Sequence record: KC295538
DNA length: 64,000 nt
Strand: one strand, 5' to 3'
Source: Escherichia phage PBECO4
Shown here: piece after piece, positions 39,774-55,333 of the stretch
How the letters are laid out: every line of letters starts with the position of its first letter
How positions within the stretch are numbered: the first letter of the stretch is position 1
Translations under genes and position numbers: made by a program
The notes under the pieces: model-generated
What the model was told of the DNA's origin: nothing
What the model saw: only the letters and a program-made list of their open reading frames with translations
Databases searched by the model: none

Positions 39774-39776
39774 TAC

Positions 39777-41077: not shown

Positions 41078-41130
41078 TTTGTTTTCCCCGTGTTGGTATG
41101 TACATATAGTACTAAAACATTTGAGTACTG

Positions 41131-41385: not shown

Positions 41386-41406
41386 TTTAGTTTATCCTAT
41401 AAAAAA

Positions 41407-41425
41407 GGCGGGAACTGATCCCGCC
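41407..41425 (-). terminator. intrinsic terminator
   Basis: ggcgggaactgatcccgcc hairpin followed on minus strand by T6. Confidence 0.6.
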
Positions 41426-41447
41426 GTGTTGTTAGTACTGCAAGTTA

Positions 41448-41843
41448 TTAGATAACCTGTCGGCGTTTACTATATACTGTTACACGATTACCCTTACGGT
41501 CGTGTCGGATCTCTTTCTGGTTGCGTACCAGTTCACTTGGACGCTTCAGGTTTGCCAGGTGATCCGCGTGAGTCCAAGCGGTATGGTTTGTCTGTACTTT
41601 GATATCAGAATCAGCGATAAACTCATCTTGTGCATCAAGTATTGACGCCAGTAAATCCGCTCGTTTTAGTTCTGCTGCTGTTAGTACTGGCTCCGGTGAA
41701 TTCACAATATCAGAGATCTCTTTGAACTGTACGGCCCAGCGTTGACCTTTCGGTGCATCTTTGCCCATGTCTTTAAATGTTTCGCCTTCCTCGCGTGCAA
41801 CAATACGGGCAGCTTCACGGGTAGCGTAGAATTTAGTAATCAT
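41448..41843 (-). CDS. hypothetical protein (paralog of 54341..54607)
   Basis: shared KFYATREAARIxAR..GxTFKDMG and DRKGNRVTVY; start moved to ATG at 41843. Confidence 0.65.
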   Translation of the reverse strand: MITKFYATREAARIVAREEGETFKDMGKDAPKGQRWAVQFKEISDIVNSPEPVLTAAELKRADLLASILDAQDEFIADSDIKVQTNHTAWTHADHLANLKRPSELVRNQKEIRHDRKGNRVTVYSKRRQVI

Positions 41844-41938
41844 GGTATACATCCTATTAGTTGAGTTAGTACTACAAGTTAGAGTCTATTATAAAGTACT
41901 ATCTGGGCAATGTCAAATAGTACTTTAAATGGATTCTA

Positions 41939-42262
41939 TTACATGTCTTTCTTACGTTTTACATCGTGGTAGCGAACTGTTATTTCTTTGTTGATCTCTT
42001 CCTCGATGCGGTGAATAACTGTTTCTTTCGGGTTGAAACCTATAACGGTTTCTTTAATGATCTCCAAGCCCGTGTATTCTCCTTGTGTACCGTAACCGTA
42101 AGTAAAGGTTTCATGTCCCAGGTCTTCCCAGCGGTCGCCAATTAACGCGGACACGTAGCAAGAGTGGTAAGTGTTACCGTTCCGATCAGTCCAGCGATTA
42201 ACTTTAATGTCAAAGGAGGTTACAATTTTCAGTTCTACTTTCTGGGTAAGGATCATAGCCAT
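41939..42262 (-). CDS. hypothetical protein (paralog of 48709..49032)
   Basis: shared RWTDxxGNTYHSC.VS and DVKRKKD. Confidence 0.65.
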   Translation of the reverse strand: MAMILTQKVELKIVTSFDIKVNRWTDRNGNTYHSCYVSALIGDRWEDLGHETFTYGYGTQGEYTGLEIIKETVIGFNPKETVIHRIEEEINKEITVRYHDVKRKKDM

Positions 42263-42286
42263 TTTTATTTCTCTCTCTCTTTGTTA

Positions 42287-42350
42287 GGAGGGGAACCGTT
42301 TCCCCTCGCTTGATGTAAACTATTATACAGTACTAAGATACTTTGTCAAT
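42287..42350 (-). promoter_or_regulatory. PeSL-like promoter + leader hairpin
   Basis: TTGACA-N17-TATAAT then ggggaaacggttcccc. Confidence 0.65.
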
Positions 42351-42352
42351 AC

Positions 42353-42535
42353 TTATTTTTTGGAAAGTTTACGCATTAATTCTACGCTTTCTTGTGAACG
42401 TTTTGCTACCTGGCAATCTGTATGGGTAGTAAACATTTTTGTATAGTCTGACGGTTTGCCACCGAACCGAGCGGCACGCTCACGGGCACTTGGAACTAAT
42501 ACGATTTCTTTCTTACAGATAGTGCACTTAGCCAT
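42353..42535 (-). CDS. hypothetical small protein (possible Cys/His metal-binding)
   Basis: 60 aa; CTICKK ... HTDC. Confidence 0.5.
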   Translation of the reverse strand: MAKCTICKKEIVLVPSARERAARFGGKPSDYTKMFTTHTDCQVAKRSQESVELMRKLSKK

Positions 42536-42557
42536 TTTTATTTCTCTCTCTTTGTTA

Positions 42558-42616
42558 GGAGGGGAACCATTCCCCCCTTGATGTAAACTATTATACAGTA
42601 CTAAGATACTTTGTCA
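42558..42616 (-). promoter_or_regulatory. PeSL-like promoter + leader hairpin
   Basis: TTGACA-N16-TATAAT then gggggaatggttcccc. Confidence 0.65.
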
Positions 42617-42620
42617 ATAC

Positions 42621-42896
42621 TTAATTATTGTAAATGCAGTGAATAGTGATAAAGTTTTTACGACCGTAAACCTGCAAATCAATATCAATGTAGTGCTTAT
42701 CAAGTACATCCTCGACGCTTAACGCGGTGTCGTGAATATCTTCGTAGAATTGAGGATCTACAATCTTGCTTAAGTCATCCGGCGTTAACTTATCGTTAAG
42801 CCATTGAACCGCCTGGATATCTGCTTCACGTTTCCAGTCTTCCAGGTTAGTAGTCAGTACTTGCTCGATTTCGTTAGCTGTCAGTAGAATCCGCAT
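42621..42896 (-). CDS. hypothetical protein
   Basis: 91 aa ORF. Confidence 0.6.
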   Translation of the reverse strand: MRILLTANEIEQVLTTNLEDWKREADIQAVQWLNDKLTPDDLSKIVDPQFYEDIHDTALSVEDVLDKHYIDIDLQVYGRKNFITIHCIYNN

Positions 42897-42961
42897 TTTT
42901 ATGTTTCCTTATCAGTAGTTGATGTAAGTATTATACTCGTTTACTTTCTATTGTCAATCTT

Positions 42962-43060
42962 TTTTTATCAGGGGAGTTTTTCGTATGTCTTACTCCTGGA
43001 CTACTTAACGGGGTTACTTGTTTTGTTCCCCGTCCTGATGTAAAACATTATACTTGATTC
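42962..43060 (-). promoter_or_regulatory. long conserved 5'-leader element (copy 1 of 3) with promoter
   Basis: atcaggggagtttttcgt..cttactcctgg..acgggg..ccccgtcctgatgtaaaacattatac; near-identical at 53653-53760, variant at 50455-50555. Confidence 0.5.
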
Positions 43061-43093
43061 TAAGTACAATGCAAGTACTTTTTAAAAATAGTT

Positions 43094-43258
43094 TTACTTA
43101 CTCATATTAACAGGCTTGAACGGTGGCAATGTAAGATCATGCGGGGTTAAACTATCATGCTTTGCCCACATACCGGAATCCCTACGGAATAATACCTTAT
43201 TGTTTTTTATACGATAAAAGTTACCATTATCAGTGTTTTTGTACCATATCATTTTCAT
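43094..43258 (-). CDS. small hypothetical protein (54 aa)
   Basis: ATG ORF MKMIWYKNTDNGNFYRIK...; AGGAG SD; below track cutoff. Confidence 0.45.
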   Translation of the reverse strand: MKMIWYKNTDNGNFYRIKNNKVLFRRDSGMWAKHDSLTPHDLTLPPFKPVNMSK

Positions 43259-43343
43259 TTACTCCTGGTTATGTCGTTATTAAACATTATACGGGGTTAT
43301 AGATAGTTTTCAAGTATATTTCAGTACTAGCCACCAGCATATA

Positions 43344-43430
43344 ATAGATACATTTATGCACCCTATGGGCTGATTTTTTTCTATGCGTATATAATAGCAA
43401 AGGGACTGACCGGAGTCAATCCCTTTTTTA
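43344..43430 (+). repeat. terminator-bearing repeat, copy 3 (candidate small RNA cassette)
   Basis: TATAAT-agatacatttatgcaccctatgggctg...gggactgaccggagtcaatccc + T6. Confidence 0.5.
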
Positions 43431-43437
43431 ATTCTTT

Positions 43438-43587
43438 TTAAACTTCTTTCGGGTTGCGATATGTGATAGCGTTCGGGTACATTTGTTTAATGTTATTCCA
43501 TGCCTGGTTAACATTGTAACCACTTGAGCGAATCAGTTGGTTACTACCGACACCTTGAAACACTACTTCGAATAAGAATTCTTTCAT
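43438..43587 (-). CDS. small hypothetical protein (49 aa)
   Basis: ATG ORF MKEFLFEVVFQGVGS...; GAGGTG SD. Confidence 0.4.
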   Translation of the reverse strand: MKEFLFEVVFQGVGSNQLIRSSGYNVNQAWNNIKQMYPNAITYRNPKEV

Positions 43588-43756
43588 GCTTTCACCTCGC
43601 TATCTGCTTTACCTTTACGCCAGGACATTACTAATTGTTCGCGTTGCCATAAATCGAGTGATACAAAAAGTTTTGCGGTATCACTTTTAGGATACTCGCC
43701 AGTAGTACCTAACCGATAAAACAGATCTTTCAGTACTGATAATTCTACTTGAATCA
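43584..43756 (-). CDS. small hypothetical protein (57 aa)
   Basis: ATG ORF MIQVELSVLKDLFYR...; AGGAG SD; ATGA overlap. Confidence 0.4.
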
Positions 43757-43863
43757 TTTTATTACTCCTGATTGATTTAATACTTCTACTATTGCATGAA
43801 TGATCATAAGTACAGCTAAAACAATAATCATCGGATTCATTTGCATAAGCTGTACTCCTTCTA

Positions 43864-44076
43864 TTAATCTTTCAGCCAATGATCTTGAATGAATTTTTCA
43901 CAGAATCCCTGTTTCATGGATTCCAACAGGCGTTCGCGGTGAGCGTTTGCGAATTGCTCAGTACTATGCGTTACGCCAGGCTGATAACGTGATACCCCAT
44001 CCGGTCCGATGTATTGTACATCCCACGGTTTTTCGTTAGTATCAGACCATTTACGAACGATTAGTTGACCTTGCAT
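43864..44076 (-). CDS. hypothetical protein
   Basis: 70 aa ORF. Confidence 0.55.
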   Translation of the reverse strand: MQGQLIVRKWSDTNEKPWDVQYIGPDGVSRYQPGVTHSTEQFANAHRERLLESMKQGFCEKFIQDHWLKD

Positions 44077-44092
44077 TTTTCTTTCCTCTCAG

Positions 44093-44153
44093 TGGGGAGA
44101 ATCATTTCTCCCCTTCATGTAACTTATTATACAGTACTAGATTATCTTGTCAA
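44093..44153 (-). promoter_or_regulatory. PeSL-like promoter + leader hairpin
   Basis: TTGACA-N16-TATAAT then ggggagaaatgattctcccc. Confidence 0.65.
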
Positions 44154-44159
44154 TAGTTT

Positions 44160-44483
44160 TTATTCACCTTGTTTGAATTTAGTTTTCTCCATTGATTCCA
44201 TGATTGCAACCAATACGCCGTGGATCTCGCTTAACGCGGAATCACTGAAAGCATTAATGAATAGTCGATCATTCTCGCGAATATTTTTAATGTACTTTTC
44301 AGCAGTAGTTGCGAATTCATTCAACGGTAGATCAAATGCTTTATCCCATGATGGATGGCGTAATTGTAACAGTACTGGATTATCACGATCACCAGGGGAA
44401 AACGTACCAGTGATGAAACATACGCCCGGAATACTTTCGAACTGGCAACGGACTTCCTTTGTGATAGTAGTATGAATGTACAT
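44160..44483 (-). CDS. hypothetical protein
   Basis: 107 aa ORF; GAGGA SD. Confidence 0.6.
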   Translation of the reverse strand: MYIHTTITKEVRCQFESIPGVCFITGTFSPGDRDNPVLLQLRHPSWDKAFDLPLNEFATTAEKYIKNIRENDRLFINAFSDSALSEIHGVLVAIMESMEKTKFKQGE

Positions 44484-44510
44484 TTATTGTTATCCTCTAT
44501 TAAATTAATA

Positions 44511-44705
44511 TTACAGTTTATGAATCAATTCTTTATCTAAGCGATAGCGTACATTATTAATAGTAACGGCATTGTTTTTAATGCTACGCTGTACAGGTCC
44601 ACCAGCAATAACAAATGTTGCTTTATTACCCCGAACAATGATAGCACTTCCAGGATTACCGAAATCATCTTGTACTAAAATACTTGATAAGTTTTCCATT
44701 TTCAT
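44511..44705 (-). CDS. hypothetical protein
   Basis: 64 aa ORF. Confidence 0.55.
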   Translation of the reverse strand: MKMENLSSILVQDDFGNPGSAIIVRGNKATFVIAGGPVQRSIKNNAVTINNVRYRLDKELIHKL

Positions 44706-44716
44706 TTCCTCTTAGT

Positions 44717-44773
44717 AGGGGAAGATGTTTCCCCTTGATGTAAGTACTATAACACTACTGGATAGTACTGTCA
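44717..44773 (-). promoter_or_regulatory. PeSL-like promoter + leader hairpin
   Basis: TTGACA..TATAGT then ggggaaacatcttcccc. Confidence 0.55.
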
Positions 44774-44780
44774 ATACTTT

Positions 44781-45038
44781 TTATCTCATAGATCTATGCC
44801 AACAATTACGCGGGGGACGTTTAAAAGTACTATCATGATCCTCCTGGCAAGTTATGCAGTACTTACATCCCTTAACGGCCTGGCGTCGTTTCTCAGGGAT
44901 TATATCGCCGCAGTCGAGGCAATGTATCAGTGATTCTATTTGTGCGTTAATTTGCTTTCTAGCGTGGTTAACGGCGGCCTGAATCACTGCGTTAATCTCG
45001 TCTTGTTCGGCCCCATCTTTCGCGAATCCTACAGCCAT
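44781..45038 (-). CDS. TraR/DksA-family C4 zinc-finger protein
   Basis: CLDCGDIIPEKRRQAVKGCKYCITCQ: CxxC-N17-CxxC typical of phage TraR/DksA-like proteins. Confidence 0.6.
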   Translation of the reverse strand: MAVGFAKDGAEQDEINAVIQAAVNHARKQINAQIESLIHCLDCGDIIPEKRRQAVKGCKYCITCQEDHDSTFKRPPRNCWHRSMR

Positions 45039-45242
45039 TATTTTAACCTCATTATAAAAATACTATAGTACTGTAATGCGACAATAATATTACTTGTTCT
45101 TACTTTTTCCAATCCACATGATACCACATATTCATCCCCATATGTGCGGAACGATACACCATGAAAATTTTTATACACTTGCACTACTAATCATAACCTT
45201 TCGTCTAACCAACTGCATAGAATTATACTACTTTACGCAAAT

Positions 45243-45275
45243 TGATCAAGTATTGATCAGATCATTTTTTGATCA
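45243..45275. promoter_or_regulatory. cluster of three TGATCA palindromes (GATC sites) in long leader
   Basis: ttgatcaagtattgatcagatcattttttgatcaa; overlaps TTGATC-N17-TATAAT on minus strand. Confidence 0.45.
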
Positions 45276-45369
45276 ATATTATACAGTTACATTTGTGCAC
45301 CCTATGGGTTAGTGACGTTCTCGTCTTGATGTAAGTATTATGCCAGTACTTGATGATATTGTCAATAGT

Positions 45370-45567
45370 TTATTTTAATTTTTTTCTGTCATTGATTAAT
45401 GCTTTCAGTACTATACTAATGATTTGCAATGATTCATCAATGACTATAAAATTATTCTCTTTCATTAGATGATAGTTACCATTGATTGTATATTCTAAGG
45501 AGTACTGTTTACGTTTAATTTTTGATAATGTTTCTATTTGTTTTTGTACTGATTTCATGCTAATCAT
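45370..45567 (-). CDS. hypothetical protein
   Basis: 65 aa ORF. Confidence 0.5.
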   Translation of the reverse strand: MISMKSVQKQIETLSKIKRKQYSLEYTINGNYHLMKENNFIVIDESLQIISIVLKALINDRKKLK

Positions 45568-45672
45568 TGTTAAACGTCCTGTAACGCATTCTAACGAGAT
45601 AAACGGTTTAGTACTGGCATTGTATAGGGTAATGAATTAAAGCCCACCAGCGTTAACCAGTGGGCTATAATC

Positions 45673-45816
45673 TTACATCTTGCGGATAATCTTAACAGTA
45701 TCTTTCACCGATTTACCGTCTTGCTGGCATTGCTCGATCATTGCGTATTGTTCTGCTGTAAGATCCTCGCCAGTTTTTGCCAGTACTGCGTCGATGAATG
45801 AATCCAGTGCGATCAT
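45673..45816 (-). CDS. small hypothetical protein (47 aa)
   Basis: ATG ORF MIALDSFIDAVLAKTGEDL...; below track cutoff. Confidence 0.4.
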   Translation of the reverse strand: MIALDSFIDAVLAKTGEDLTAEQYAMIEQCQQDGKSVKDTVKIIRKM

Positions 45817-45915
45817 TTTGTTTCTCTCTTAGGTTAAGTTAACTACTGTTTATAAAACTTATTATACAGTACTATCAAACGTTGTCAATATCTTTAATAG
45901 TACTGGTAATATATT

Positions 45916-46158
45916 TTAGCGGTAATCGTCGTATGCTTTATTCACCTGGCGAATGTAACTTTCAAAGGCTTCGTCTACCGTTTCATACTCCCGAACATAA
46001 TCACCATAGGAAACTACATACATACCTTTTTGATCTTCAAACGACATGATGATAGAATCCAGGCCGATGATTTCAGTTTTTGCGATGATAGCCATTTTTA
46101 ATTCCTTAGTAGTGTAGTTGATAAAAGTTATTATGCCAGTACTATCAATCAGTGTCAA
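45916..46158 (-). CDS. hypothetical protein
   Basis: 80 aa ORF. Confidence 0.55.
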   Translation of the reverse strand: MTLIDSTGIITFINYTTKELKMAIIAKTEIIGLDSIIMSFEDQKGMYVVSYGDYVREYETVDEAFESYIRQVNKAYDDYR

Positions 46159-46178
46159 TAGTACTGTGATAATATTTT

Positions 46179-46391
46179 TTAGTTAATAATAGTCAGTGTA
46201 AAATTGTAATCCCCTGCCTGGTATAGTACTTTATCGCCGAACGTTCCAACACGTTTCATATTGCAATAGATACCCATAACACTTTTTACATCTTTGATAT
46301 TCCGAACGCCAGTAATATCCTTGTTTAAATGATCGTGATCAGAAAATAAAACTTGTTTTGCATTTTTCAGTACAGTGCAGATATTAGCCAT
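46179..46391 (-). CDS. hypothetical protein
   Basis: 70 aa ORF. Confidence 0.55.
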   Translation of the reverse strand: MANICTVLKNAKQVLFSDHDHLNKDITGVRNIKDVKSVMGIYCNMKRVGTFGDKVLYQAGDYNFTLTIIN

Positions 46392-46411
46392 TTTGTTTTC
46401 TCTCTGTTAGT

Positions 46412-46471
46412 GGGGAGAATCATTTCTCCCCTTCATGTAACTTATTATACAGTACTATAATCTATTGTCAA
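46412..46471 (-). promoter_or_regulatory. PeSL-like promoter + leader hairpin
   Basis: TTGACA..TATAAT then ggggagaaatgattctcccc. Confidence 0.65.
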
Positions 46472-46485
46472 ACTATTTTTTTATA

Positions 46486-46827
46486 TTATTCGAAATCTTC
46501 TGGACCGGACTGATAATCATCTTCACCGTATGCACTTTCTAACTTCTCGCCAGTGTGATCATCAGTTAGTGAATCATCCTCATAATTCACGTCTACGCCT
46601 ACAATGTAAAACTGGCTATCGTCTGGATCATTGAAATTAATTTTCTGAATGTTTACAATAACTGTATTGATGCCCAGGACACAGCCATCAGCCGTTACAA
46701 AGTACTGATAGTTTTCACAACCGCCTGAATTGAAACCGTAATTGATTTCGGCCCGACCATCATTTAAACGCAGTGCCTGGGCGATGATTTCGTTTTCAAA
46801 GTTAGATTGAGCAATTGAGATAGTCAT
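46486..46827 (-). CDS. hypothetical protein (acidic C-terminus)
   Basis: 113 aa ORF. Confidence 0.6.
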   Translation of the reverse strand: MTISIAQSNFENEIIAQALRLNDGRAEINYGFNSGGCENYQYFVTADGCVLGINTVIVNIQKINFNDPDDSQFYIVGVDVNYEDDSLTDDHTGEKLESAYGEDDYQSGPEDFE

Positions 46828-46847
46828 GATTCGTTTCCTTATTACTA

Positions 46848-46906
46848 GGGGAAACCGTTTCCCCTTTCGATGTAAAACATTATACGCTTATTGAGATAGT
46901 TTGCAA
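46848..46906 (-). promoter_or_regulatory. PeSL-like promoter + leader hairpin
   Basis: TTGCAA-N16-TATAAT then ggggaaacggtttcccc. Confidence 0.6.
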
Positions 46907-46960
46907 GTACTTTTTATCAAATACTTTAAAATAGTTTTCAGTACTCAAACATTATACAAT

Positions 46961-47050
46961 AGATACACTCCTGCACCCTGTGGGCTAGTGAGCTATCTCT
47001 CAATGATTATATAATAACAAAATGGCTGACCGAAGTCAACCACTTTTTTC
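46961..47050 (+). repeat. terminator-bearing repeat, copy 4 (variant)
   Basis: TACAAT-agatacactcctgcaccctgtgggct...tggctgaccgaagtcaacca + T6. Confidence 0.45.
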
Positions 47051-47052
47051 AT

Positions 47053-47187
47053 TTATTTTTTAGCTTTAAGTACTGCGGCCTTTCGTGTCATGCCTTGCTT
47101 GATGTATTCCTGTACTTTCGCTTTACGTGCTTTAGCTTTATCTGCTTTAGTTTTAGGAGTACTGTAAACTATACCGTTAGGATTCAT
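47053..47187 (-). CDS. small lysine-rich hypothetical protein (44 aa)
   Basis: ATG ORF MNPNGIVYSTPKTKADKAKARKAK... Confidence 0.35.
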   Translation of the reverse strand: MNPNGIVYSTPKTKADKAKARKAKVQEYIKQGMTRKAAVLKAKK

Positions 47188-47273
47188 TTAAATCACCATA
47201 AAGAATAGATAGGTTACTAACAACGCCGCGATCAATGCACCGACCAGGGCCGAACTGTAATAAGCTAAGGATC

Positions 47274-47426
47274 TCATTTTTTAGCCTGAAAATAATGTTT
47301 AATTTGTGCGGCGGTCAGTGCACAATTACGCAGGAAGTTTTCTGTATAACTGCGGCGAGTATTAAAAGAGAATTGACCTTTACCGTTACCGATAGTTACA
47401 TCCATCCGAGCGTTGTATTGTTTCAT
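47274..47426 (-). CDS. hypothetical protein
   Basis: Start moved to ATG at 47426 (MKQYNARMDV...) after leader hairpin. Confidence 0.5.
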   Translation of the reverse strand: MKQYNARMDVTIGNGKGQFSFNTRRSYTENFLRNCALTAAQIKHYFQAKK

Positions 47427-47444
47427 TTTGTATCTCCTGTTATC

Positions 47445-47504
47445 GGGGAGAATCATTTCTCCCCTTCATGTAAAACATTATACAGTACTAAAAACTAATT
47501 GCAA
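47445..47504 (-). promoter_or_regulatory. PeSL-like promoter + leader hairpin
   Basis: TTGCAA-N17-TATAAT then ggggagaaatgattctcccc. Confidence 0.65.
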
Positions 47505-47507
47505 GTA

Positions 47508-47750
47508 TTATTTTAAACTTTGTGCGACTAATTTCGCACGGTCAATCATATACTGCCATTTTTGGATCTCTTCTGGCAGAAAACGATATTCACCAATAAC
47601 AATAGTGATACACTTTTCAGCTTGGTCAATGTATGTAGTATCAATCTCGACTTGAACGGGTACACGTTCGCCGTATTCAGTCCCTGGGATAATGCAATCA
47701 TTATCATAAGTTACAGTAGTAGTAGTGTCTTTGATTAAAATTGTTTCCAT
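47508..47750 (-). CDS. hypothetical protein
   Basis: 80 aa ORF. Confidence 0.55.
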   Translation of the reverse strand: METILIKDTTTTVTYDNDCIIPGTEYGERVPVQVEIDTTYIDQAEKCITIVIGEYRFLPEEIQKWQYMIDRAKLVAQSLK

Positions 47751-47774
47751 TATACTTTCCTCGTTAGGTGTAAG

Positions 47775-47828
47775 GGGAACGTTTTCCCCTTCATGTAAAA
47801 CATTATACAGTACTGAAAACTAATTGCA
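47775..47828 (-). promoter_or_regulatory. PeSL-like promoter + leader hairpin
   Basis: TTGCAA..TATAAT then ggggaaaacgttcccc. Confidence 0.6.
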
Positions 47829-48029
47829 AGTACTTTCCGAAAGTAAATGCTCATACGCTGCATTAACTACATTTTCAATAACCGACTGTACAGAAAGATC
47901 CCCCACGTCCTGGCTATAGTAGAAATTGCTTACAGTGGTGTCATCGTATGCAAATACTTTACCAGGTACTGCATCAATCACATACATATTAACCTTTAAG
48001 ATGTCGATCTTATCCTGTACAGTAAGCAT
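47820..48029 (-). CDS. hypothetical protein
   Basis: 69 aa ORF. Confidence 0.55.
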   Translation of the reverse strand: MLTVQDKIDILKVNMYVIDAVPGKVFAYDDTTVSNFYYSQDVGDLSVQSVIENVVNAAYEHLLSESTCN

Positions 48030-48034
48030 ATTAA

Positions 48035-48307
48035 TTAACCTTTTAAGTACTGGCTTAAGTAGTCTTTTTGATCTTCGGTGATTGCAGTCATCTTCCCTAG
48101 TACTGGATTGATGATATAATCCCCTGTAACGTCCTGTAACGCATTCTCAGGCGGTTTAACGGCTGGGGTAGCCATAGCCATTGCCTGGACTTGTTCGACG
48201 CTGTAACGCTCATAAAGGCGGCATTCTTCCGGTGTTAACATAGCATCAGTACGCTTCATCGGTTTAATGATGCTTTCGATCTCATTCAGTACTTGATTAA
48301 CGTTCAT
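48035..48307 (-). CDS. hypothetical protein
   Basis: 90 aa ORF. Confidence 0.55.
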   Translation of the reverse strand: MNVNQVLNEIESIIKPMKRTDAMLTPEECRLYERYSVEQVQAMAMATPAVKPPENALQDVTGDYIINPVLGKMTAITEDQKDYLSQYLKG

Positions 48308-48358
48308 GGTATAATCCCCAATATAAGCGGCCTAAATCGACCGCTAACGATGTTTTGA

Positions 48359-48628
48359 TTAATAGGTGTAAGGTTGACGCTCAAACAATGATTGTACGCT
48401 GTACGCCCCGCTAATGGGCTTCGCTGGCAAATCAATTTTATATTGTTCACGCTTAAAGATAATAAAACGGCAATTGTTTTTAACATCAAAATTGATTGAA
48501 CGTTCCAGGAGTTTTCCATCGTGCACAAATACAAGATAACCGCTTGGTACTTGTTTTGTAGAACTGGTTGCAACCATAGACCGACGAACATGTGTACCTG
48601 CATCGATTAAAGTACTGATATTTTTCAT
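48359..48628 (-). CDS. hypothetical protein
   Basis: 89 aa ORF; GAGGA SD; preferred over overlapping alternative frame. Confidence 0.55.
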   Translation of the reverse strand: MKNISTLIDAGTHVRRSMVATSSTKQVPSGYLVFVHDGKLLERSINFDVKNNCRFIIFKREQYKIDLPAKPISGAYSVQSLFERQPYTY

Positions 48629-48708
48629 TTTACTATCCTCTTAAGTTGATTTAATTTCTTTCCCCTATGCAGACACTGTATCAAAGTATCTGCATAAAGT
48701 AAAGCTAA

Positions 48709-49032
48709 TTAAAGATCTTTTTTACGTTTTACATCCTGTACAGTACAATGCAACGGGATAGACAAATCATTACACAAACGAGTAAGGGAGGTTTCAACAG
48801 TATCAAGCCCGTCTACTGATTCCTTTAAGAGATCAAACGCCGTTTGTTGATATGCATCTTCATAGCCATAAGTAAATGATTCAACCGCCAGATCATTCAA
48901 ACCGTTATCCAGTTCAACGCTTACATGACAAGAATGATAAGTATTGCCATATGAATCAGTCCAACGTTTACCGTCAACATTGATTGCATGGATTGCAGCC
49001 AGGGAAACGGTATTGATGATAGTTTTAGCCAT
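48709..49032 (-). CDS. hypothetical protein (paralog of 41939..42262)
   Basis: 107 aa; shared RWTDSYGNTYHSCHVS and DVKRKKD. Confidence 0.65.
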   Translation of the reverse strand: MAKTIINTVSLAAIHAINVDGKRWTDSYGNTYHSCHVSVELDNGLNDLAVESFTYGYEDAYQQTAFDLLKESVDGLDTVETSLTRLCNDLSIPLHCTVQDVKRKKDL

Positions 49033-49123
49033 TTTAGTATTCCTTAAATTAATATGTGTCGTCTTGATAAAATCTATTATGCCAGTACTATCAAACTATG
49101 TCAATAGTACTGTGATAATATTT

Positions 49124-49336
49124 TTACTTACTTTCTTTCGCTGCTTTATATGTTGCCACTGCCATAACCACATCAGCACGAACAAAGTTTTTAACCGTGT
49201 CACTGTAATAATTGATCGCATCATCTATATCTGCGAACGTCCGATACATACCGCACCAAGATACTTTATAACCTTCTTTCACTTCTGCCAGTTTAACGAT
49301 AGTCTTGTTAACTTTGATTTTAGTAATGATAGCCAT
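49124..49336 (-). CDS. hypothetical protein
   Basis: Start moved to ATG at 49336 (MAIITKIKV...). Confidence 0.55.
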   Translation of the reverse strand: MAIITKIKVNKTIVKLAEVKEGYKVSWCGMYRTFADIDDAINYYSDTVKNFVRADVVMAVATYKAAKESK

Positions 49337-49355
49337 TTTAGTTTCCTCATTATCA

Positions 49356-49414
49356 GGGAGAACCATTTCTCCCCTTGATGTAATGTATTATACTTTATTC
49401 GATTTACTTTGCAA
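49356..49414 (-). promoter_or_regulatory. PeSL-like promoter + leader hairpin
   Basis: TTGCAA..TATAAT then ggggagaaatggttctccc. Confidence 0.6.
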
Positions 49415-49423
49415 GTACTTTTT

Positions 49424-49651
49424 TTAATTTAATTCATCCAGGCAAAGGATACGCTCAACGCCCAAATCAGTTAAACTAATCGACGGCACTTGATAGGTTT
49501 CAATGTATGCTACACTTGCCCACTGACCGAACTCATTAACGGCCCAGGTATTCATTGCATTTTGCAATTCCGCACCTGCCTTGTTAGTAATGACTGCAAC
49601 TACTTGTTCGTTGCCAGTAGTACCAGATACGCGAGTAATGATAATAGCCAT
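49424..49651 (-). CDS. hypothetical protein
   Basis: Start moved to ATG at 49651 (MAIIITRVSG...). Confidence 0.55.
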   Translation of the reverse strand: MAIIITRVSGTTGNEQVVAVITNKAGAELQNAMNTWAVNEFGQWASVAYIETYQVPSISLTDLGVERILCLDELN

Positions 49652-49674
49652 TGTTTTGATTCCTTTGATTTGGA

Positions 49675-49734
49675 AGGAGAACCGTTTCCCCCTCTCGATG
49701 TAAAACATTATACGCTAATCTCTTAATCGTGCAA
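49675..49734 (-). promoter_or_regulatory. PeSL-like promoter + leader hairpin
   Basis: promoter then gagggggaaacggttctcc hairpin. Confidence 0.6.
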
Positions 49735-49893
49735 GTACTTTTTATTACTTTTTGCAAAATACTTTAAACGCTCTCAATCGCATTCTAACGACCTTAACGC
49801 CACCAGCTAGGGCGATGTATCAGATAATCAGTTTAATGCGTTAGAATCGATTCTAGGCGGTGCTGGTGGACTGGAATACTACAGACACAAAAA

Positions 49894-49915
49894 AGCCCAC
49901 TGTTTAAGGTGGGCT
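49894..49915 (-). terminator. intrinsic terminator
   Basis: agcccaccttaaacagtgggct + T6 on minus strand; identical copy at 50628-50649. Confidence 0.65.
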
Positions 49916-49936
49916 AGTGATTCAGTACTTTAATTG

Positions 49937-50434
49937 TTATGCTTCAACTTTGCGATGAGCTTCGATCCATTCCTCGCGAGTCATACCGCTTTCTTTGATA
50001 GCGTCCAGTACTACCGCAATGCAGTTACCGCGTACAGGAATCATATGTTCTTCCCCGTTATCAAGTACTACAGTAACACGTTCTTGAATCCATTTTTTAG
50101 GTTTAGATTCTGGCTTATCTTCACCATACTTAACCGCCAGGGCTTTATGTGCCATTTCTACAACTACTTCCAGATCCAATCCAGCCACCGCCGCCTGGAT
50201 ACTTTCGATTGTTGCTTGCAGTTCGGCTTCACGGGCTTTTTTCTGTTCTTCCAGTTCTGCTACCTTTTTGGCTTGCAGTTCTTTAGCTTCACTGTACGCA
50301 ATGTTAAAATTGTTGCGTACTGCTTTCATGGTATCGTTATCCAGGTCAGCCAACAATTCAGCAGCAATAACAGTATCGTTTGAAATCAGTGCTTTCAGGA
50401 ATGATTTTACATTAGCCATTTTATAAATCCTCAA
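49937..50434 (-). CDS. hypothetical protein (predicted coiled-coil, basic C-terminal region)
   Basis: 165 aa ORF; heptad-like AELEEQKKAREAELQATIESIQ. Confidence 0.6.
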   Translation of the reverse strand: MRIYKMANVKSFLKALISNDTVIAAELLADLDNDTMKAVRNNFNIAYSEAKELQAKKVAELEEQKKAREAELQATIESIQAAVAGLDLEVVVEMAHKALAVKYGEDKPESKPKKWIQERVTVVLDNGEEHMIPVRGNCIAVVLDAIKESGMTREEWIEAHRKVEA

Positions 50435-50454
50435 TTAAAGTTTAGTTTACGTTT

Positions 50455-50555
50455 ATTAGTGTATCAAAGTTTTATCGACGTGTCCAGTTTTTCGTTCGAC
50501 TTACTGGCGGTCTACTTAGTGCTCCCCGTCTTGATGTAATACATTCTACGCCTTT
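50455..50555 (-). promoter_or_regulatory. long conserved 5'-leader element (copy 2, variant)
   Basis: gtccagtttttcgttcgacttactggcggtctacttagtgctccccgtcttgatgtaatacattctac. Confidence 0.4.
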
Positions 50556-50627
50556 TTGTGGTAATGTCAACTACTATTTTAAAACTATTTTTAAAGTATG
50601 CAGTACTACGATAATACAAAAACAAAA

Positions 50628-50649
50628 AAGCCCACTGTTTAAGGTGGGC
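50628..50649 (-). terminator. intrinsic terminator
   Basis: same hairpin + T-run as 49894-49915. Confidence 0.65.
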
Positions 50650-50667
50650 TAGTGATTCAGTACTATA

Positions 50668-50967
50668 TTATAAACAGTTAATTACTCCGGTGTGCGTTAC
50701 TTTCTCAGTATCCATAACCGTGACCGATCCACGCTTAGTACTTACATCGTAATAAATTGTCGTGCTACCTTTTTCGTCTTCTTCATGGAACGGGCCGCTT
50801 TTAAATGCTTCTGGCTGGATCTCTAAATCCTTTAAAACAATCTCGCCAGTACTTTCATCTGTCATCGCAACAGTGCACTGAATGAATTTTTCACTACTTA
50901 CATCTAACGACGCATTAACAGCGAAAGAGGAAACAGATAAAGCCAGGGCGATGATTGCAATTTTCAT
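50668..50967 (-). CDS. exported small protein (signal peptide)
   Basis: MKIAIIALALSVSSFAVNA / SLD: hydrophobic core with AxA-type cleavage motif. Confidence 0.6.
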   Translation of the reverse strand: MKIAIIALALSVSSFAVNASLDVSSEKFIQCTVAMTDESTGEIVLKDLEIQPEAFKSGPFHEEDEKGSTTIYYDVSTKRGSVTVMDTEKVTHTGVINCL

Positions 50968-50987
50968 TTGATTATCCTTAGTTACCA

Positions 50988-51046
50988 GGGGGAACCGCTC
51001 CCCCGTGCGATGTAAAATATTGTACAGTACTAAAAACTAATTGCAA
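50988..51046 (-). promoter_or_regulatory. PeSL-like promoter + leader hairpin
   Basis: TTGCAA..TACAAT then gggggagcggttccccc. Confidence 0.6.
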
Positions 51047-51051
51047 GTACT

Positions 51052-51288
51052 TTATGATTTTTTATAAAACATTTCGGCAGTAATATTTTTACCCGTTGGT
51101 TGTACTTTATCCAGAATTTTTTGATGCCCTGGCCGTCCAAATGAATATGATCCGTAAACCGTAAACCAGTAGTTACCCTCAGTGTTTACATGTACAGCAC
51201 AATAGGGAACGCCCCGCGATTCATCACCAATAAAGTGTGATACCGTTCCCGTTACATTAGCAGACGTTGATTTGATTTGTTCAAGCAT
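51052..51288 (-). CDS. hypothetical protein
   Basis: 78 aa ORF. Confidence 0.55.
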   Translation of the reverse strand: MLEQIKSTSANVTGTVSHFIGDESRGVPYCAVHVNTEGNYWFTVYGSYSFGRPGHQKILDKVQPTGKNITAEMFYKKS

Positions 51289-51309
51289 TTTCTTATTCCT
51301 TAGTTACCA

Positions 51310-51363
51310 GGGGGAACCGCTCCCCCTATGCAAAACATTATACGCGTTTAAAAACTAATAGCA
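51310..51363 (-). promoter_or_regulatory. PeSL-like promoter + leader hairpin
   Basis: promoter then gggggagcggttccccc. Confidence 0.55.
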
Positions 51364-51397
51364 AGTATTTTAATAAAAAGTATTTGAAAAATAATTG

Positions 51398-51426
51398 TTG
51401 ACAACTGCATCCAGTACTGGCATAAT
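51398..51426 (+). promoter_or_regulatory. plus-strand sigma70-like promoter (antisense to flanking genes)
   Basis: TTGACA-N17-CATAAT, reading into ..ctaacccaccgggtgc.. element. Confidence 0.5.
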
Positions 51427-51506
51427 TACTACATCAAGACGAAACAGTCACTAACCCACCGGGTGCCGAGATCCGTCTATTAAATGATTCAGTACTTAAC
51501 AATAAA

Positions 51507-51524
51507 GGGGATCAATCGATCCCC
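51507..51524 (-). terminator. intrinsic terminator
   Basis: ggggatcaatcgatcccc perfect palindrome + T-run on minus strand. Confidence 0.55.
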
Positions 51525-51530
51525 TATGTA

Positions 51531-51752
51531 TTACTTAGTAAGGTATAAACAGAAGTCACCTTTATTTGCTACGCCGCCAGTGTAACGCGATGAATAGTTA
51601 GAAACGTCCTGGACTTCTGCTATTACCAGTGTATCATCATTCAATTCGTCGCAGAAGCAAACGGCTGGATCTTTTACGCCGATCTTGTCGGCATGTTCCC
51701 GCATAGATTTAACCAGTGCTTCCAGTTGAGAAAGAGTAGTGATATTAGCCAT
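51531..51752 (-). CDS. hypothetical protein
   Basis: Start moved to ATG at 51752 (MANITTL...). Confidence 0.55.
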   Translation of the reverse strand: MANITTLSQLEALVKSMREHADKIGVKDPAVCFCDELNDDTLVIAEVQDVSNYSSRYTGGVANKGDFCLYLTK

Positions 51753-51771
51753 TGTATTTTCCTCATTACCA

Positions 51772-51830
51772 GGGAGAACCATTTCTCCCCTCTATGTAAA
51801 CTATTATACAGTACTGAAAACTAATTGCAA
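51772..51830 (-). promoter_or_regulatory. PeSL-like promoter + leader hairpin
   Basis: TTGCAA-N16-TATAAT then ggggagaaatggttctccc. Confidence 0.65.
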
Positions 51831-51836
51831 GTACTT

Positions 51837-52025
51837 TTAATTAAATTCCATAAAATCATTCTCAACGTGCACAACAATTTGATTGTTTTTAAAGTCCGCA
51901 GCGAACTCGATGCAATCATAAACCGCTTTTTGTGTTACAATGCTATGAGTACCAATCGGATTAATAGGGGATTGAATTGTTTCAATCTCGTTCCCTTGCT
52001 CATTAACAATTAAAATATTAAACAT
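51837..52025 (-). CDS. hypothetical protein
   Basis: 62 aa ORF. Confidence 0.5.
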   Translation of the reverse strand: MFNILIVNEQGNEIETIQSPINPIGTHSIVTQKAVYDCIEFAADFKNNQIVVHVENDFMEFN

Positions 52026-52081
52026 CGCTGTTACTCCTGGGTAGTGTTAACTCGATATAAAGTATTATACGCCTTTATTGC

Positions 52082-52288
52082 TTAGTGTCCAGTACTTTTT
52101 AAAACATATTCATAAACACTACGCACATCATTGATCATCGCCTGGCGGTTAGCAGGTAACGCACCAGGATCGCCACTATCCCAGGCATTGATAAAACTCC
52201 CCAAATCATGAAAGATTTTATTCTGTAAGCCGATTAACTGCAATTCTTTTTCTTCAAGCTCTTTGATACGGTCAATTAAAAGACTCAT
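52082..52288 (-). CDS. hypothetical protein
   Basis: Start moved to ATG at 52288 (MSLLIDRIKE...); GAGGAttatctaATG context shared with next gene. Confidence 0.55.
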   Translation of the reverse strand: MSLLIDRIKELEEKELQLIGLQNKIFHDLGSFINAWDSGDPGALPANRQAMINDVRSVYEYVLKSTGH

Positions 52289-52305
52289 TAGATAATCCTC
52301 AGTAC

Positions 52306-52593
52306 TTAATTGTAAGATCCGCAACGGTTACAATAGTGCCCGTCTTCCTCGTCATCGTCAACGAATTGACCGACGAAATTATCTACTTTCTCTTTGAGAT
52401 TCTGATAATTGTTTTCAACTTCCTTTAGACGTTCCTGGTAGTATTCCAGGGCTTGCACATACGCCGCCTCAGCCGTTTTCGCTCTTAAGGCTAAATTCAT
52501 GCCACGCGTTTCATCGTACATCCAAAAGCCATCGGTGCACTCACTGATTGACAATGATTTGGTTAACACTTTATAGTCAATTACTTTGCTCAT
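52306..52593 (-). CDS. hypothetical protein
   Basis: Start moved to ATG at 52593 (MSKVIDYKV...) after ggcgggtgtggttcccgcc hairpin. Confidence 0.55.
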   Translation of the reverse strand: MSKVIDYKVLTKSLSISECTDGFWMYDETRGMNLALRAKTAEAAYVQALEYYQERLKEVENNYQNLKEKVDNFVGQFVDDDEEDGHYCNRCGSYN

Positions 52594-52649
52594 TAGATAA
52601 TCCTCAGTAAAGGCGGGAACCACACCCGCCATTGATTCAGTACTGAATG

Positions 52650-52889
52650 TTACATTCCAACCATTGCAGCACGGATCGCCGTAGTGCTATACTTGAATCC
52701 GTCCGGTGTTGTAGTAGTACCGTTGGCTTTTAATCTGCGGTACATACATTGGGCCGCAATATCTTTAGTTTTACATTGTGCGATGCAACTTTGAGCAAGC
52801 CGATATAATGACTCACCGTTATTAATCCACAATGAAACATTCCAATGAGTTTTGTTTTTGTGCCCGTTGTAAGTTTTAGTAGTAGCCAT
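52650..52889 (-). CDS. hypothetical protein (paralog of 54698..54937)
   Basis: 79 aa; shared GHKNKTHWNVSLWINN and TPDGFKYSTTAIRAAMVGM. Confidence 0.65.
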   Translation of the reverse strand: MATTKTYNGHKNKTHWNVSLWINNGESLYRLAQSCIAQCKTKDIAAQCMYRRLKANGTTTTPDGFKYSTTAIRAAMVGM

Positions 52890-52911
52890 TTTTAAATCCT
52901 CGTTTAATTGA

Positions 52912-52973
52912 GCGGGAGAACCATTCCCCCGCCTCGATATAAAGTATTATACGCTTTTAAACTTAGTTTGCAA
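52912..52973 (-). promoter_or_regulatory. PeSL-like promoter + leader hairpin
   Basis: TTGCAA..TATAAT then gcgggggaatggttctcccgc. Confidence 0.65.
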
Positions 52974-52985
52974 GTACTTTTTAAA

Positions 52986-53597
52986 TTAATATGCGATTGA
53001 TTCTACTACGTCATCAATAACATTGAATTGATACTCGTTACCCTCGATCAGTGCCGTGATGTTCTCAGTAGTGAATTGATCCTCATATGCATTCTCTAAA
53101 TCACGGTACAACTTGCGGGACAATTCACGAATAGTATCAGTGAGTAGTTCCTCAAGCTCATTAACTAACGTTTCTTGTTTTGCGGTTAAATCAGTGTAAG
53201 CCGATTCAATGTACCCGCTTACAGTATTCTCATGCGAGTAGTGGGAGTGCGAACGCTTTACACTCATCGCCAAATCATCTTCATTCAGCAAGTGACGGAT
53301 TGAGCGATACTTAGTTAATGCTCTTACCTTGCGTAAAAACTTCACTGCGTCAACGTGGTCAGTACTGATTGATGCACCGTCACCCTGGGACCAAAAACCA
53401 CTGAATTGTATTTCAGCTTCATTAATGCCATATTCCGGTAGTACTGTTTCTTTATAGTATTCAATTTCACTTTCAGAAAAATAATTGTCGTTTGAGTTTT
53501 TTTCACGTTCCCGAACCAGTTCGATAGCTGACGTTTGTTGTTCTGCGTTCAATTCAGAAAAATCCATAACGAAAGTAGTAGTAGTGATAGTTTTCAT
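52986..53597 (-). CDS. hypothetical protein
   Basis: 203 aa ORF; largest gene of cassette region. Confidence 0.6.
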   Translation of the reverse strand: MKTITTTTFVMDFSELNAEQQTSAIELVREREKNSNDNYFSESEIEYYKETVLPEYGINEAEIQFSGFWSQGDGASISTDHVDAVKFLRKVRALTKYRSIRHLLNEDDLAMSVKRSHSHYSHENTVSGYIESAYTDLTAKQETLVNELEELLTDTIRELSRKLYRDLENAYEDQFTTENITALIEGNEYQFNVIDDVVESIAY

Positions 53598-53652
53598 TTT
53601 GTAACCCTCATTCAGTAGTTGATGTAAGTATTATACGCTTTTAAAAACATTT

Positions 53653-53760
53653 GTCAAACTATTTTATCAGGGGAGTTTTTCGTGTGCCTTACTCCTGGGC
53701 TACTTAACGGGAAGTTACTTATTTCGTTCCCCGTCCTGATGTAAAACATTATACGCCTTT
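53653..53760 (-). promoter_or_regulatory. long conserved 5'-leader element (copy 3) with tandem promoters
   Basis: near-identical to 42962-43060; second TTGACA..TATAAT promoter closer to the ATG. Confidence 0.5.
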
Positions 53761-53818
53761 AAACATAGTTTGCAAGTACTTTTTAAAAATAGTTTTCAGT
53801 ACTGAATATTAAAAAAGT

Positions 53819-53847
53819 ATTGACAGCATTATCAAGTACTGGCATAA
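53819..53847 (+). promoter_or_regulatory. plus-strand sigma70-like promoter
   Basis: TTGACA-N17-CATAAT; convergent with a minus-strand TTGACT..CATAAT promoter ~100 bp away. Confidence 0.5.
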
Positions 53848-54022
53848 TATACCACATGACAACAGCTAACCCACCGGGTGCACAATTGTAACTATACTAA
53901 ACTAATTTTTCTATAGATACACTCCCGCACCCTATGGGCTACGGCTTATCTGCCAATGAATACATTATGCCAGTACTGACAAAATAAGTCAATACCGGCA
54001 ATTGTAAAGATTTGTAAACTAC

Positions 54023-54253
54023 TTATACTGCAATCGCGTCCAGGCTATAATAATAATAAGTGCCGTATTGGTGTACTTTATTACCTTTTATTTCAGTACT
54101 GAATGAATCCGAACGATTTGCATATGATGTTAATTTAAAGTACTTTGATTTGCTGATACGTTGCCATACACCACAGATCCGCTGTAAGTAAGTAGTTTTA
54201 TTCGTGGTAGTATCTTTTACGGTTTTAACTTCAGTCATATACATATTAGTCAT
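54023..54253 (-). CDS. hypothetical protein
   Basis: 76 aa ORF. Confidence 0.55.
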   Translation of the reverse strand: MTNMYMTEVKTVKDTTTNKTTYLQRICGVWQRISKSKYFKLTSYANRSDSFSTEIKGNKVHQYGTYYYYSLDAIAV

Positions 54254-54273
54254 TTTTATTACTCCAGGTTATA

Positions 54274-54333
54274 GGCGGGAAGAGTTCCCGCTCTCGATGT
54301 AAAACATTATACGCCTTTAAACATAGTTTGCAA
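54274..54333 (-). promoter_or_regulatory. PeSL-like promoter + leader hairpin
   Basis: TTGCAA..TATAAT then gcgggaactcttcccgcc. Confidence 0.65.
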
Positions 54334-54340
54334 GTACTTT

Positions 54341-54607
54341 TTATTCAAGTACTGCAATCTTTTTAGTACGGTACACGGTCACGCGGTTGCCCTTTCGGTC
54401 GAGCTTTATTTCTACCACTCGACGCGATACACTATCGGGACTTTTTAAGGCCGCTAACCAGTACTGTAATGATCTGGCTGTACTACGCTTTACAATGGCC
54501 CAACGTTTACCACGTTCCGATTGTACGCCCATATCTTTAAACGTTGCCCCGTCCTGGCGTGCGGCGATCCGAGCTTGTTCACGCGTCGCAAAATACTTAA
54601 TATTCAT
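54341..54607 (-). CDS. hypothetical protein (paralog of 41448..41843)
   Basis: Start moved to ATG at 54607 (MNIKYFATREQ...). Confidence 0.65.
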   Translation of the reverse strand: MNIKYFATREQARIAARQDGATFKDMGVQSERGKRWAIVKRSTARSLQYWLAALKSPDSVSRRVVEIKLDRKGNRVTVYRTKKIAVLE

Positions 54608-54697
54608 GCTGTTGCCCTTATCGTTGGTGTATGAATAAAACACTATTATAAAGTACTATCGCAAAAAATGATAGTACTTTAAATAAATTCTATTCTA

Positions 54698-54937
54698 TTA
54701 CATTCCAACCATCGCCGCACGGATCGCAGTAGTGCTATACTTAAAGCCGTCCGGTGTTTTATCTTGTCCAGTCTGTTCTAAAAATAGCATCATATGACGG
54801 GCCGCATCATTACGATTAGTATTGGCGGCAATAAAGTCCTGGGCCAACCGATACAATCCCTCATCGTTATTAATCCAAAGGCTTACATTCCAATGAGTTT
54901 TGTTTTTGTGACCTAAGAACATTTTTGATTTAGCCAT
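54698..54937 (-). CDS. hypothetical protein (paralog of 52650..52889)
   Basis: Start moved to ATG at 54937 (MAKSKMFLGHKNK...). Confidence 0.65.
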   Translation of the reverse strand: MAKSKMFLGHKNKTHWNVSLWINNDEGLYRLAQDFIAANTNRNDAARHMMLFLEQTGQDKTPDGFKYSTTAIRAAMVGM

Positions 54938-54957
54938 TTTTTTAATCCTCTTATATA

Positions 54958-55016
54958 GTGGGGAACTATTCCCCACCTGATGTAAAGTATTATACGCTTT
55001 TAAATTTAGTTTGCAA
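54958..55016 (-). promoter_or_regulatory. PeSL-like promoter + leader hairpin
   Basis: TTGCAA..TATAAT then gtggggaatagttccccac. Confidence 0.65.
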
Positions 55017-55019
55017 GTA

Positions 55020-55253: not shown

Positions 55254-55273
55254 ACAATTAATCTCTTAATTAT

Positions 55274-55333
55274 AGTGGGGAACTATTCCCCACCTGATGT
55301 AAAACATTATACGCTTTTAAACTTAGTTTGCAA
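55274..55333 (-). promoter_or_regulatory. PeSL-like promoter + leader hairpin
   Basis: same hairpin sequence as 54958-54976. Confidence 0.65.

Follow-up and report, generated by a model that had tools for sequence, protein, structure and literature searches.

Three old pairs of small paralogous genes in a terminal-repeat cassette array of an Asteriusvirus jumbo phage that probably evolves by recombination

The DNA considered here (hereafter the window, 64,000 nucleotides) comes from Escherichia phage PBECO4 (KC295538), an Asteriusvirus jumbo coliphage of the 121Q/PBECO4/G17-like group, and contains three pairs of small paralogous genes, P1A/P1B, P2A/P2B, and P3A/P3B (Table 1). The nearest records are Asteriusvirus, with a patchy coverage: the best megablast matches cover 32–77% of 41–55.5 kb, in 4–14 pieces and at 89–98% identity. 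All six genes lie inside a long direct terminal repeat (DTR) composed of ~45 short minus-strand genes, most with their own sigma-70 promoter and nearly all annotated as hypothetical in relatives. In fEgEco12, restriction mapping has established a terminal repeat of ~21 kb (PMC13070987). The window contains a single collapsed copy of the repeat, and in records with both repeats there are four places for every family.

An earlier note on this DNA, made from the sequence alone, had proposed these pairs as products of duplication. They are indeed true homologs, all on the minus strand and with the quoted motifs present, and each pair lies in one PHROG (phrog_8127, phrog_6246, and phrog_871, respectively). 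P1A and P1B share 35% identity with a 45-aa internal gap (BLASTP E = 2e-19), P2A and P2B share 37% over all 107 aa without gaps (E = 3e-27), and P3A and P3B share 66% over 79 aa (E = 2e-37). The separation of 6–13 kb given in the note fits the first two pairs (12.9 and 6.8 kb) but not the third, whose members are 2.0 kb apart. Profile matches are full-length for P1 (phrog_8127, E = 1e-36 and 7e-26) and for P2 (phrog_6246, E = 1e-34 and 7e-40), and both PHROG numbers also appear in the SHEFM2K record. The P3 proteins match Pfam DUF7249 (PF23907) at model positions 2–77 of 93, with 52.6 and 47.8 bits for a gathering cutoff of 27. An all-against-all BLAST of the open reading frames (ORFs), together with family hidden Markov models, shows that every family has two members in the window and no further ones. 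P1 is confined to RaK2-like phages, with two copies in Asteriusvirus and one in RaK2, K64-1, and Hallingskeid. DUF7249 is found by tblastn in 303 phage records, including Phapecoctavirus, Ralstonia phages, and cyanophages, and 157 homologs bear the precomputed domain. Its ends are conserved and its middle is hypervariable; P3A and P3B are 89–92% identical at the 3′ end and 43% in the middle.

The surrounding array is rich in repeated regulatory modules. Between 36 and 57.6 kb there are 35 sigma-70-type promoters on the minus strand, 11 of which are perfect (12/12) matches; promoter sites overall number 98, against 66.7 ± 8.3 in shuffles, and 27 copies fall in direct-repeat families. In ~24 of the 35 units a GC-rich hairpin (ΔG −10 to −16 kcal/mol) starts 11–13 nt past the −10 box, the layout being promoter, hairpin, purine-rich ribosome-binding site (RBS), and ATG. 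The stems vary among units through paired changes, and some hairpins are identical; GGGGAGAAATGATTCTCCCC, for instance, recurs in three units and GGTGGGGAATAGTTCCCCAC in two. Units with a leader hairpin span positions 37380–55333 on the minus strand and have no match in Rfam, a search of which returned no known RNA family at E <= 0.1 in 36–58 kb. Leader hairpins are not followed by a T-run, whereas T-run terminators occur elsewhere in the window. The fixed place of the hairpin after the promoter and the lack of a T-run suggest that it is more likely a 5′ mRNA structure than a terminator, probably located at the very 5′ end of the transcript. The identical terminators on which the earlier note had also relied are as real as the identical hairpins, the two copies sharing a 43-nt block. 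These terminators and hairpins are conserved regulatory modules, which recur at the same sites in relatives such as G17, and not footprints of recent copying.

Table 1. Genes, regulatory elements, and variable cassettes of the array (positions in the window)
Feature	Coordinates	Strand	Remarks
P1A gene	41448..41843 (alternative ATG at 41852)	-	phrog_8127, long form, 131 aa
P1B gene	54341..54607	-	phrog_8127, short form, 88 aa, central ~45 aa missing
P2A gene	41939..42262	-	phrog_6246, 107 aa; immediately upstream of P1A
P2B gene	48709..49032	-	phrog_6246, 107 aa
P3A gene	52650..52889	-	DUF7249 / phrog_871, 79 aa
P3B gene	54698..54937	-	DUF7249 / phrog_871, 79 aa; immediately upstream of P1B
P1A private promoter	41886..41940	-	TTGACA-N17-TATAAT and 18-mer GATAGTACTTTATAATAG; no leader hairpin
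P1B private promoter core	54643..54697	-	same 18-mer as P1A; no good -35, no hairpin; begins at P3B stop codon
P2A promoter and leader hairpin	42288..42349	-	TTGACA-N16-TATAAT at 42349-42322; hairpin ~42307-42288
P2B promoter	49076..49104	-	TTGACA-N17-CATAAT, extended -10 TG; no leader hairpin
P3A promoter and leader hairpin	52911..52973	-	TTGCAA-N16-TATAAT; hairpin 52933-52911
P3B promoter and leader hairpin	54957..55016	-	
Intrinsic terminator after P1A	41407..41425	-	annotated at the equivalent place in G17
Terminator copy 1	49894..49915	-	AGCCCACCTTAAACAGTGGGCT and T-run; in 43-nt block identical to copy 2
Terminator copy 2	50629..50650	-	shares the 43-nt identical block with copy 1
Promoter and 54-aa gene cassette	43096..43312	-	only in the window, among 8 genomes compared
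Polymorphic slot	47515..47781	-	80-aa gene here, 48-aa gene in five relatives
Polymorphic 77-aa gene cassette	55022..55266	-	between 86%-identical promoter-hairpin units
60-aa gene cassette	42353..42535	-	between 88%-identical units
78-aa gene (51052-51288) cassette	51005..51326	-	perfect 30-nt direct repeats on both sides
Long direct terminal repeat, early-gene hyperplastic region	36476..57442, approximate	minus-strand transcription	colinear with the annotated 21,525-bp DTR of vB_Ec-M-J

Alignment of the pairs with their flanks shows that P1 and P3 share both regulatory region and coding sequence (CDS), and that P2 shares the CDS only. The 18-mer of the P1 promoter core has zero-mismatch occurrences only at P1A and P1B, and the upstream limit of the homology of the P1 unit coincides with the stop codon of the preceding gene (ATGTAATAGAAT). 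In P3, the homology is delimited by the −35 region and the stop codon; the promoter is 96% identical and the CDS 74%, and each promoter-leader unit is the best or second-best match of the other among 34. The corresponding ranks for P2A and P2B are 25th and 15th of 34, and the regulatory unit of P2A is instead a near-duplicate of the next unit upstream, at 42617.

Synonymous sites are saturated between the members of P1 and of P2 (proportions of synonymous differences, pS, of 0.88 and 0.77), and the synonymous divergence (dS) of the P3 pair is 0.89 (Nei-Gojobori); between the window and its 121Q orthologs, dS ranges from 0.09 to 0.57. The ratio of nonsynonymous to synonymous divergence (dN/dS) is lower than 0.5 wherever dS can be estimated; this covers the ortholog pairs, without exception, and P3A/P3B, whereas P1A/P1B and P2A/P2B are saturated. 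Judging from these values, the paralogs are old and under purifying selection. All six genes are found at the same positions in vB_Ec-M-J, BF17, and SD-1_S14. P3A is present in six of the eight genomes compared, being absent from G17 and 121Q, which have other cassettes in the slot. In SHEFM2K and phAPEC6 the six slots are filled, with a different allele in the P2B slot. P1A orthologs are 85–99% identical in nearly all the Asteriusvirus records listed. Overall, the copies keep their positions in six of the seven 121Q-group genomes compared. Since the slots are shared across relatives, the copies predate the spread of the 121Q group.

Eight genomes were compared for cassette turnover, with slots anchored on conserved neighbors. 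Promoters and genes vary together in number in most of the slots compared, except for two empty slots of SD-1_S14. At ~12460–12560 and 19000–19100 of the SD-1_S14 sequence compared, promoter or promoter-hairpin units stand in tandem without the gene that the window has there. The slot occupied in the window by an 80-aa gene is empty in 121Q, with one promoter, and in SD-1_S14, with two. The 77-aa gene cassette corresponds in four relatives to a single unit with no gene, and the 60-aa gene cassette is absent from 121Q, SHEFM2K, and phAPEC6, which have one merged unit. The 78-aa gene cassette is missing from its own slot in 121Q, and a 77%-identical copy occupies the P3A slot instead. Three cassette deletions (42361–42529, 51054–51328, and 55021–55258) leave one merged unit each, as expected from a crossover between the flanking units. 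Genes make up 72% of the region and intergenic DNA only 28%, while 27 of the 36 distinct breakpoints fall between genes or no more than 8 nt from a gene end; the associated binomial p of ~1e-8 is only descriptive, as events are non-independent, only viable genomes are seen, and no correction is made for ancestry or selection.

Replacement also concerns alleles and parts of genes. The P2B slot of SHEFM2K and phAPEC6 holds a 114-aa allele that is 80–83% identical to ukendt_63, a gene of the Phapecoctavirus ukendt, and 34% identical to the P2B of the window; the breakpoints coincide with the DVKRKKDL tail, which is conserved, and with the start codon of the cassette upstream. EJP2_520 is a chimera, in which nucleotides 1–60 are 92% identical to P3A (vs. 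68%) and nucleotides 121–240 are 87–97% identical to P3B. Similarly, EJP2_516, the occupant of the P1B slot, is of the long form and resembles P1A in its N-terminal part but P1B at its C-terminus.

These data are best accounted for if the pairs are old, conserved early-gene families residing in a DTR cassette array that evolves by recombination as do the promoter and stem-loop units of T4-type phages known as PeSLs (see following), an explanation that we regard as probable. The array consists of single-gene cassettes. In a typical one, a short ORF is preceded by a sigma-70 promoter, in most cases a GC-rich hairpin, and an RBS, and some cassettes are closed by a stock terminator. Copies of these cassettes would be gained, lost, replaced, and partly converted through recombination, with no transposase involved, and crossovers would occur at the conserved regulatory spacers and at the conserved gene ends. 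P1 most likely results from the in-lineage duplication of a unit made of private promoter and gene, within the RaK2/121Q lineage, because both copies have the private promoter and the same upstream junction. P2 and P3 may have arisen either by duplication in the genome or by separate acquisition from a pool of homologous cassettes that would be common to rV5-like coliphages, some copies perhaps having been acquired independently. The array would be expressed early by the host RNA polymerase. A role of the proteins in host take-over or in anti-defense is presumed, as a guess from their location and early-type promoters.

Several observations fit this explanation poorly. Nine of the 36 breakpoints lie inside genes. 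In SD-1_S14, the closest relative, two deletions removed only the CDS and kept both flanking units in tandem, with junctions that show only 3–4 nt of microhomology. Not every event is thus a crossover between flanking units, and simple unequal crossing-over as the sole mechanism is contradicted by these two junctions. The high identity of the P3 promoters could reflect selection on the promoter sequence and not co-duplication with the gene. The DUF7249 tree, built on 79 columns, has weak internal support. Finally, as no T-run follows them, a PeSL-like terminator role for the leader hairpins is doubtful.

The alternative that survives best is that the members of the pairs entered the array separately, each from another phage and in particular from rV5-like Phapecoctavirus, in which case they would not be duplicates made in this lineage. 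In a neighbor-joining tree of DUF7249, P3A and P3B are exclusive sisters in none of 200 bootstraps, being interleaved with Phapecoctavirus genes, and P3B shows less synonymous divergence from ukendt_64 (dS 0.66) than from P3A (0.89). The weakness of the tree means, though, that separate acquisition and duplication followed by export are indistinguishable for this family. Also in favor of this alternative are the rV5-like allele found in the P2B slot of two genomes and the 54-aa gene cassette that only the window has among the eight genomes compared, the nearest homologs of which are 45–52% identical and belong to phages of 141–150 kb. Moreover, the regulatory design is common to both genera. 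In ukendt, the P2-like gene ukendt_63 and the P3 gene ukendt_64 are adjacent, at least six genes homologous to genes of the window lie within 5 kb (the P2 and P3 homologs among them), and the same promoter-hairpin-RBS layout is used, with the hairpin design at six of eight promoters in 5.2 kb. P1 fits this alternative badly, as its restriction to RaK2-like phages, with one copy in three of them and two in Asteriusvirus, as well as its private promoter and upstream junction, favor duplication within the lineage. The trees, for their part, are blurred by mosaic alleles. Separate acquisition is unlikely as an explanation for the pairs as a whole.

P3B and ukendt_64 also share a 53-nt perfect match that includes synonymous positions (window 54861–54913; positions 2525–2577 of the 5.2-kb ukendt stretch compared). 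Set against an overall identity of 74% between the two genes, this suggests a recent conversion tract linking them across phage genera.

The earlier note had instead read the pairs as the result of duplication and transposition of promoter-gene cassettes, which would be a recent event in this genome. Part of this proposal stands: the region is built of cassettes, genomes differ by whole cassettes, and P1 and P3 have promoter as well as CDS in common; identical terminators and hairpins at several sites and the different slot, in 121Q, of the 77%-identical copy of the 51052–51288 cassette would also fit. A recent origin does not stand. Protein identity between the copies is just 35–66%, with synonymous sites saturated or dS of ~0.9, most 121Q-group genomes compared have the two members of every family in the same slots, the promoters of P2 are unrelated, and the repeated terminators are at the same sites in G17. 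Transposition fares no better, as the junctions show only promoter-unit homology or 3–4 nt of microhomology and fit homologous or microhomology recombination. The cassettes of the window and of its annotated relatives hold only short hypothetical ORFs, and no transposase, inverted repeats, or target duplications were seen, although no search dedicated to transposases or inverted repeats was made. Recent duplication and transposition is thus largely refuted and very improbable. As for the idea that the matches are due to chance or low complexity, or that the terminal repeat was wrongly assembled, nothing but the short length of the proteins speaks for it, and it is refuted by E-values of 2e-19 to 2e-37 obtained with composition correction, by similarity that is not of low complexity, by the assignment of each pair to one PHROG and of one pair to one Pfam family, and by the divergence of the copies, each with its own orthologs in dozens of independently sequenced genomes.

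Recombination among old cassettes, which we prefer to these alternatives, could be extended further, although only tentatively. Promoter and 5′-hairpin units might act as a “docking syntax” common to two unrelated lineages of coliphages, the ~350-kb Asteriusvirus genomes, in their repeats, and the ~150-kb rV5-like phages, so that co-infection would pass self-contained early-gene cassettes, and even gene segments, between them by homologous recombination. This would amount to an integrase-free, integron-like pool, of which P1, P2, and P3 would be diversifying effectors.

Some candidate features of the families were considered and discarded. In Asteriusvirus, and in EJP2 as well, P1 comes after P2 or P3 as if in a two-gene module, but in RaK2 the gene before P1 is unrelated, so that the module is not general. 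The P2A protein gives a match to the Protein Data Bank (PDB) entry 2c4i (E = 1.5e-6) suggestive of an avidin-like fold, but this value is obtained by adding two weak hits on a construct of tandem avidins; for avidins taken singly E is 0.06–0.9, and P2B has no such match, indicating an artefact. For P1 and P3 there are no sequence matches to solved structures. The AlphaFold model of DUF7249 (pLDDT 89) has four helices and no significant PDB neighbor, the best Foldseek match being at E = 4.7. The model of P1A (pLDDT 75, pTM 0.33) predicts an N-terminal β-α-β-β, a flexible helical linker, and a C-terminal β-hairpin, and is without structural neighbor (best match E = 0.04, TM < 0.3).

Other repeats are found in the window. 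Large tandem arrays of small paralogous genes, far larger than the three pairs, lie at 29500–36000, 17300–20850, and 57700–61350, with families of ~70 aa (>25 members), ~150 aa (five to six members), and ~60 aa. The palindrome AGTACT has 258 matches in the window against 18.1 ± 3.7 in shuffles (~14-fold). It is present in many spacers of 41–55 kb, just 5′ of the −35 box (AAAGTACTTGCAA), before terminators, and right after stop codons (e.g., 41895–41900, 49414–49419, 52639–52644, and 54333–54338); no sites are listed for ~20.6–28.3 kb or 31–36.5 kb. A family of non-coding repeats of ~150–200 nt occupies larger intergenic gaps (40086–40229, 46925–47068, ~43274–43445, and 53612–53811). It includes a long hairpin terminator, AAAGGGATTGACTCCGGTCAGTCCCTTT, identical at 40207–40180 and 43426–43399, as well as a motif, GCACCCTATGGGC, that is conserved. 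Near the inferred physical end of the genome (~57442), at 56540–56691, there is an array of 8-nt periodic repeats (CGTCTAGC-like).

A search of the literature, within the library available, returned no description of promoter-hairpin cassettes or analysis of paralogs for Asteriusvirus or rV5-like phages. In the RaK2-like phage CBB, a long terminal repeat with ~50 short ORFs and RpoD-like promoters has been described, along with 22 paralogous ORFs, which were listed without analysis of the duplicated unit, its age, or the turnover of cassettes (PMC5259590); the Asteriusvirus window similarly contains small hypothetical genes with paralogs in the same genome. The rV5 genome paper lists promoters and terminators and does not describe hairpin units or cassette exchange (PMC3606486). 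The early regions of rV5-like phages, such as that of ukendt, resemble the array in layout and in sharing P2, P3, and at least four other homologs, but these phages have genomes of only ~150 kb, unlike Asteriusvirus, and no P1 member was found in them. The early-gene block of 121Q-like jumbo phages thus has both genes and regulatory design in common with rV5-like phages.

Integrons, too, line up single-gene modules, which can be gained, lost, or put in another order. The resemblance is an analogy only, since the phage array has neither integrase nor attC sites, each of its cassettes has its own promoter, and exchange seems to proceed by general recombination. There are also practical implications: the array may help in the annotation of hypothetical genes in therapy-candidate phages and in the prediction of unstable parts of their genomes, and it provides comparison points for genes of host take-over and anti-defense.

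The closest known system is that of the PeSLs, units of ~100 bp in which a GC-rich stem-loop accompanies a promoter that is strong and sigma-70-like; one subclass has the stem-loop just downstream of the −10 box (PMC2839356; Comeau et al. 2014, PMC4122927). As with PeSLs, repeated units of sigma-70 promoter and stable GC-rich stem-loop precede small ORFans in a hyperplastic region, and close relatives differ in whole genes that have been inserted, deleted, or replaced, with the units as boundaries. Unlike the T4-type myoviruses that carry PeSLs, the phage studied here is an Asteriusvirus jumbo phage with its array inside a ~21-kb direct terminal repeat; its hairpin stands at one fixed place after the −10 box and lacks a T-run, separate stock terminators are present, and some of its deletions keep both units. 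By analogy, the array would work like PeSLs, outside the original T4-type set. This is a known kind of genome plasticity, ordinary for large lytic phages, and calls for no new mechanism: the early-gene block of 121Q-like jumbo phages evolves cassette by cassette, as the PeSL regions of T4-type phages do.

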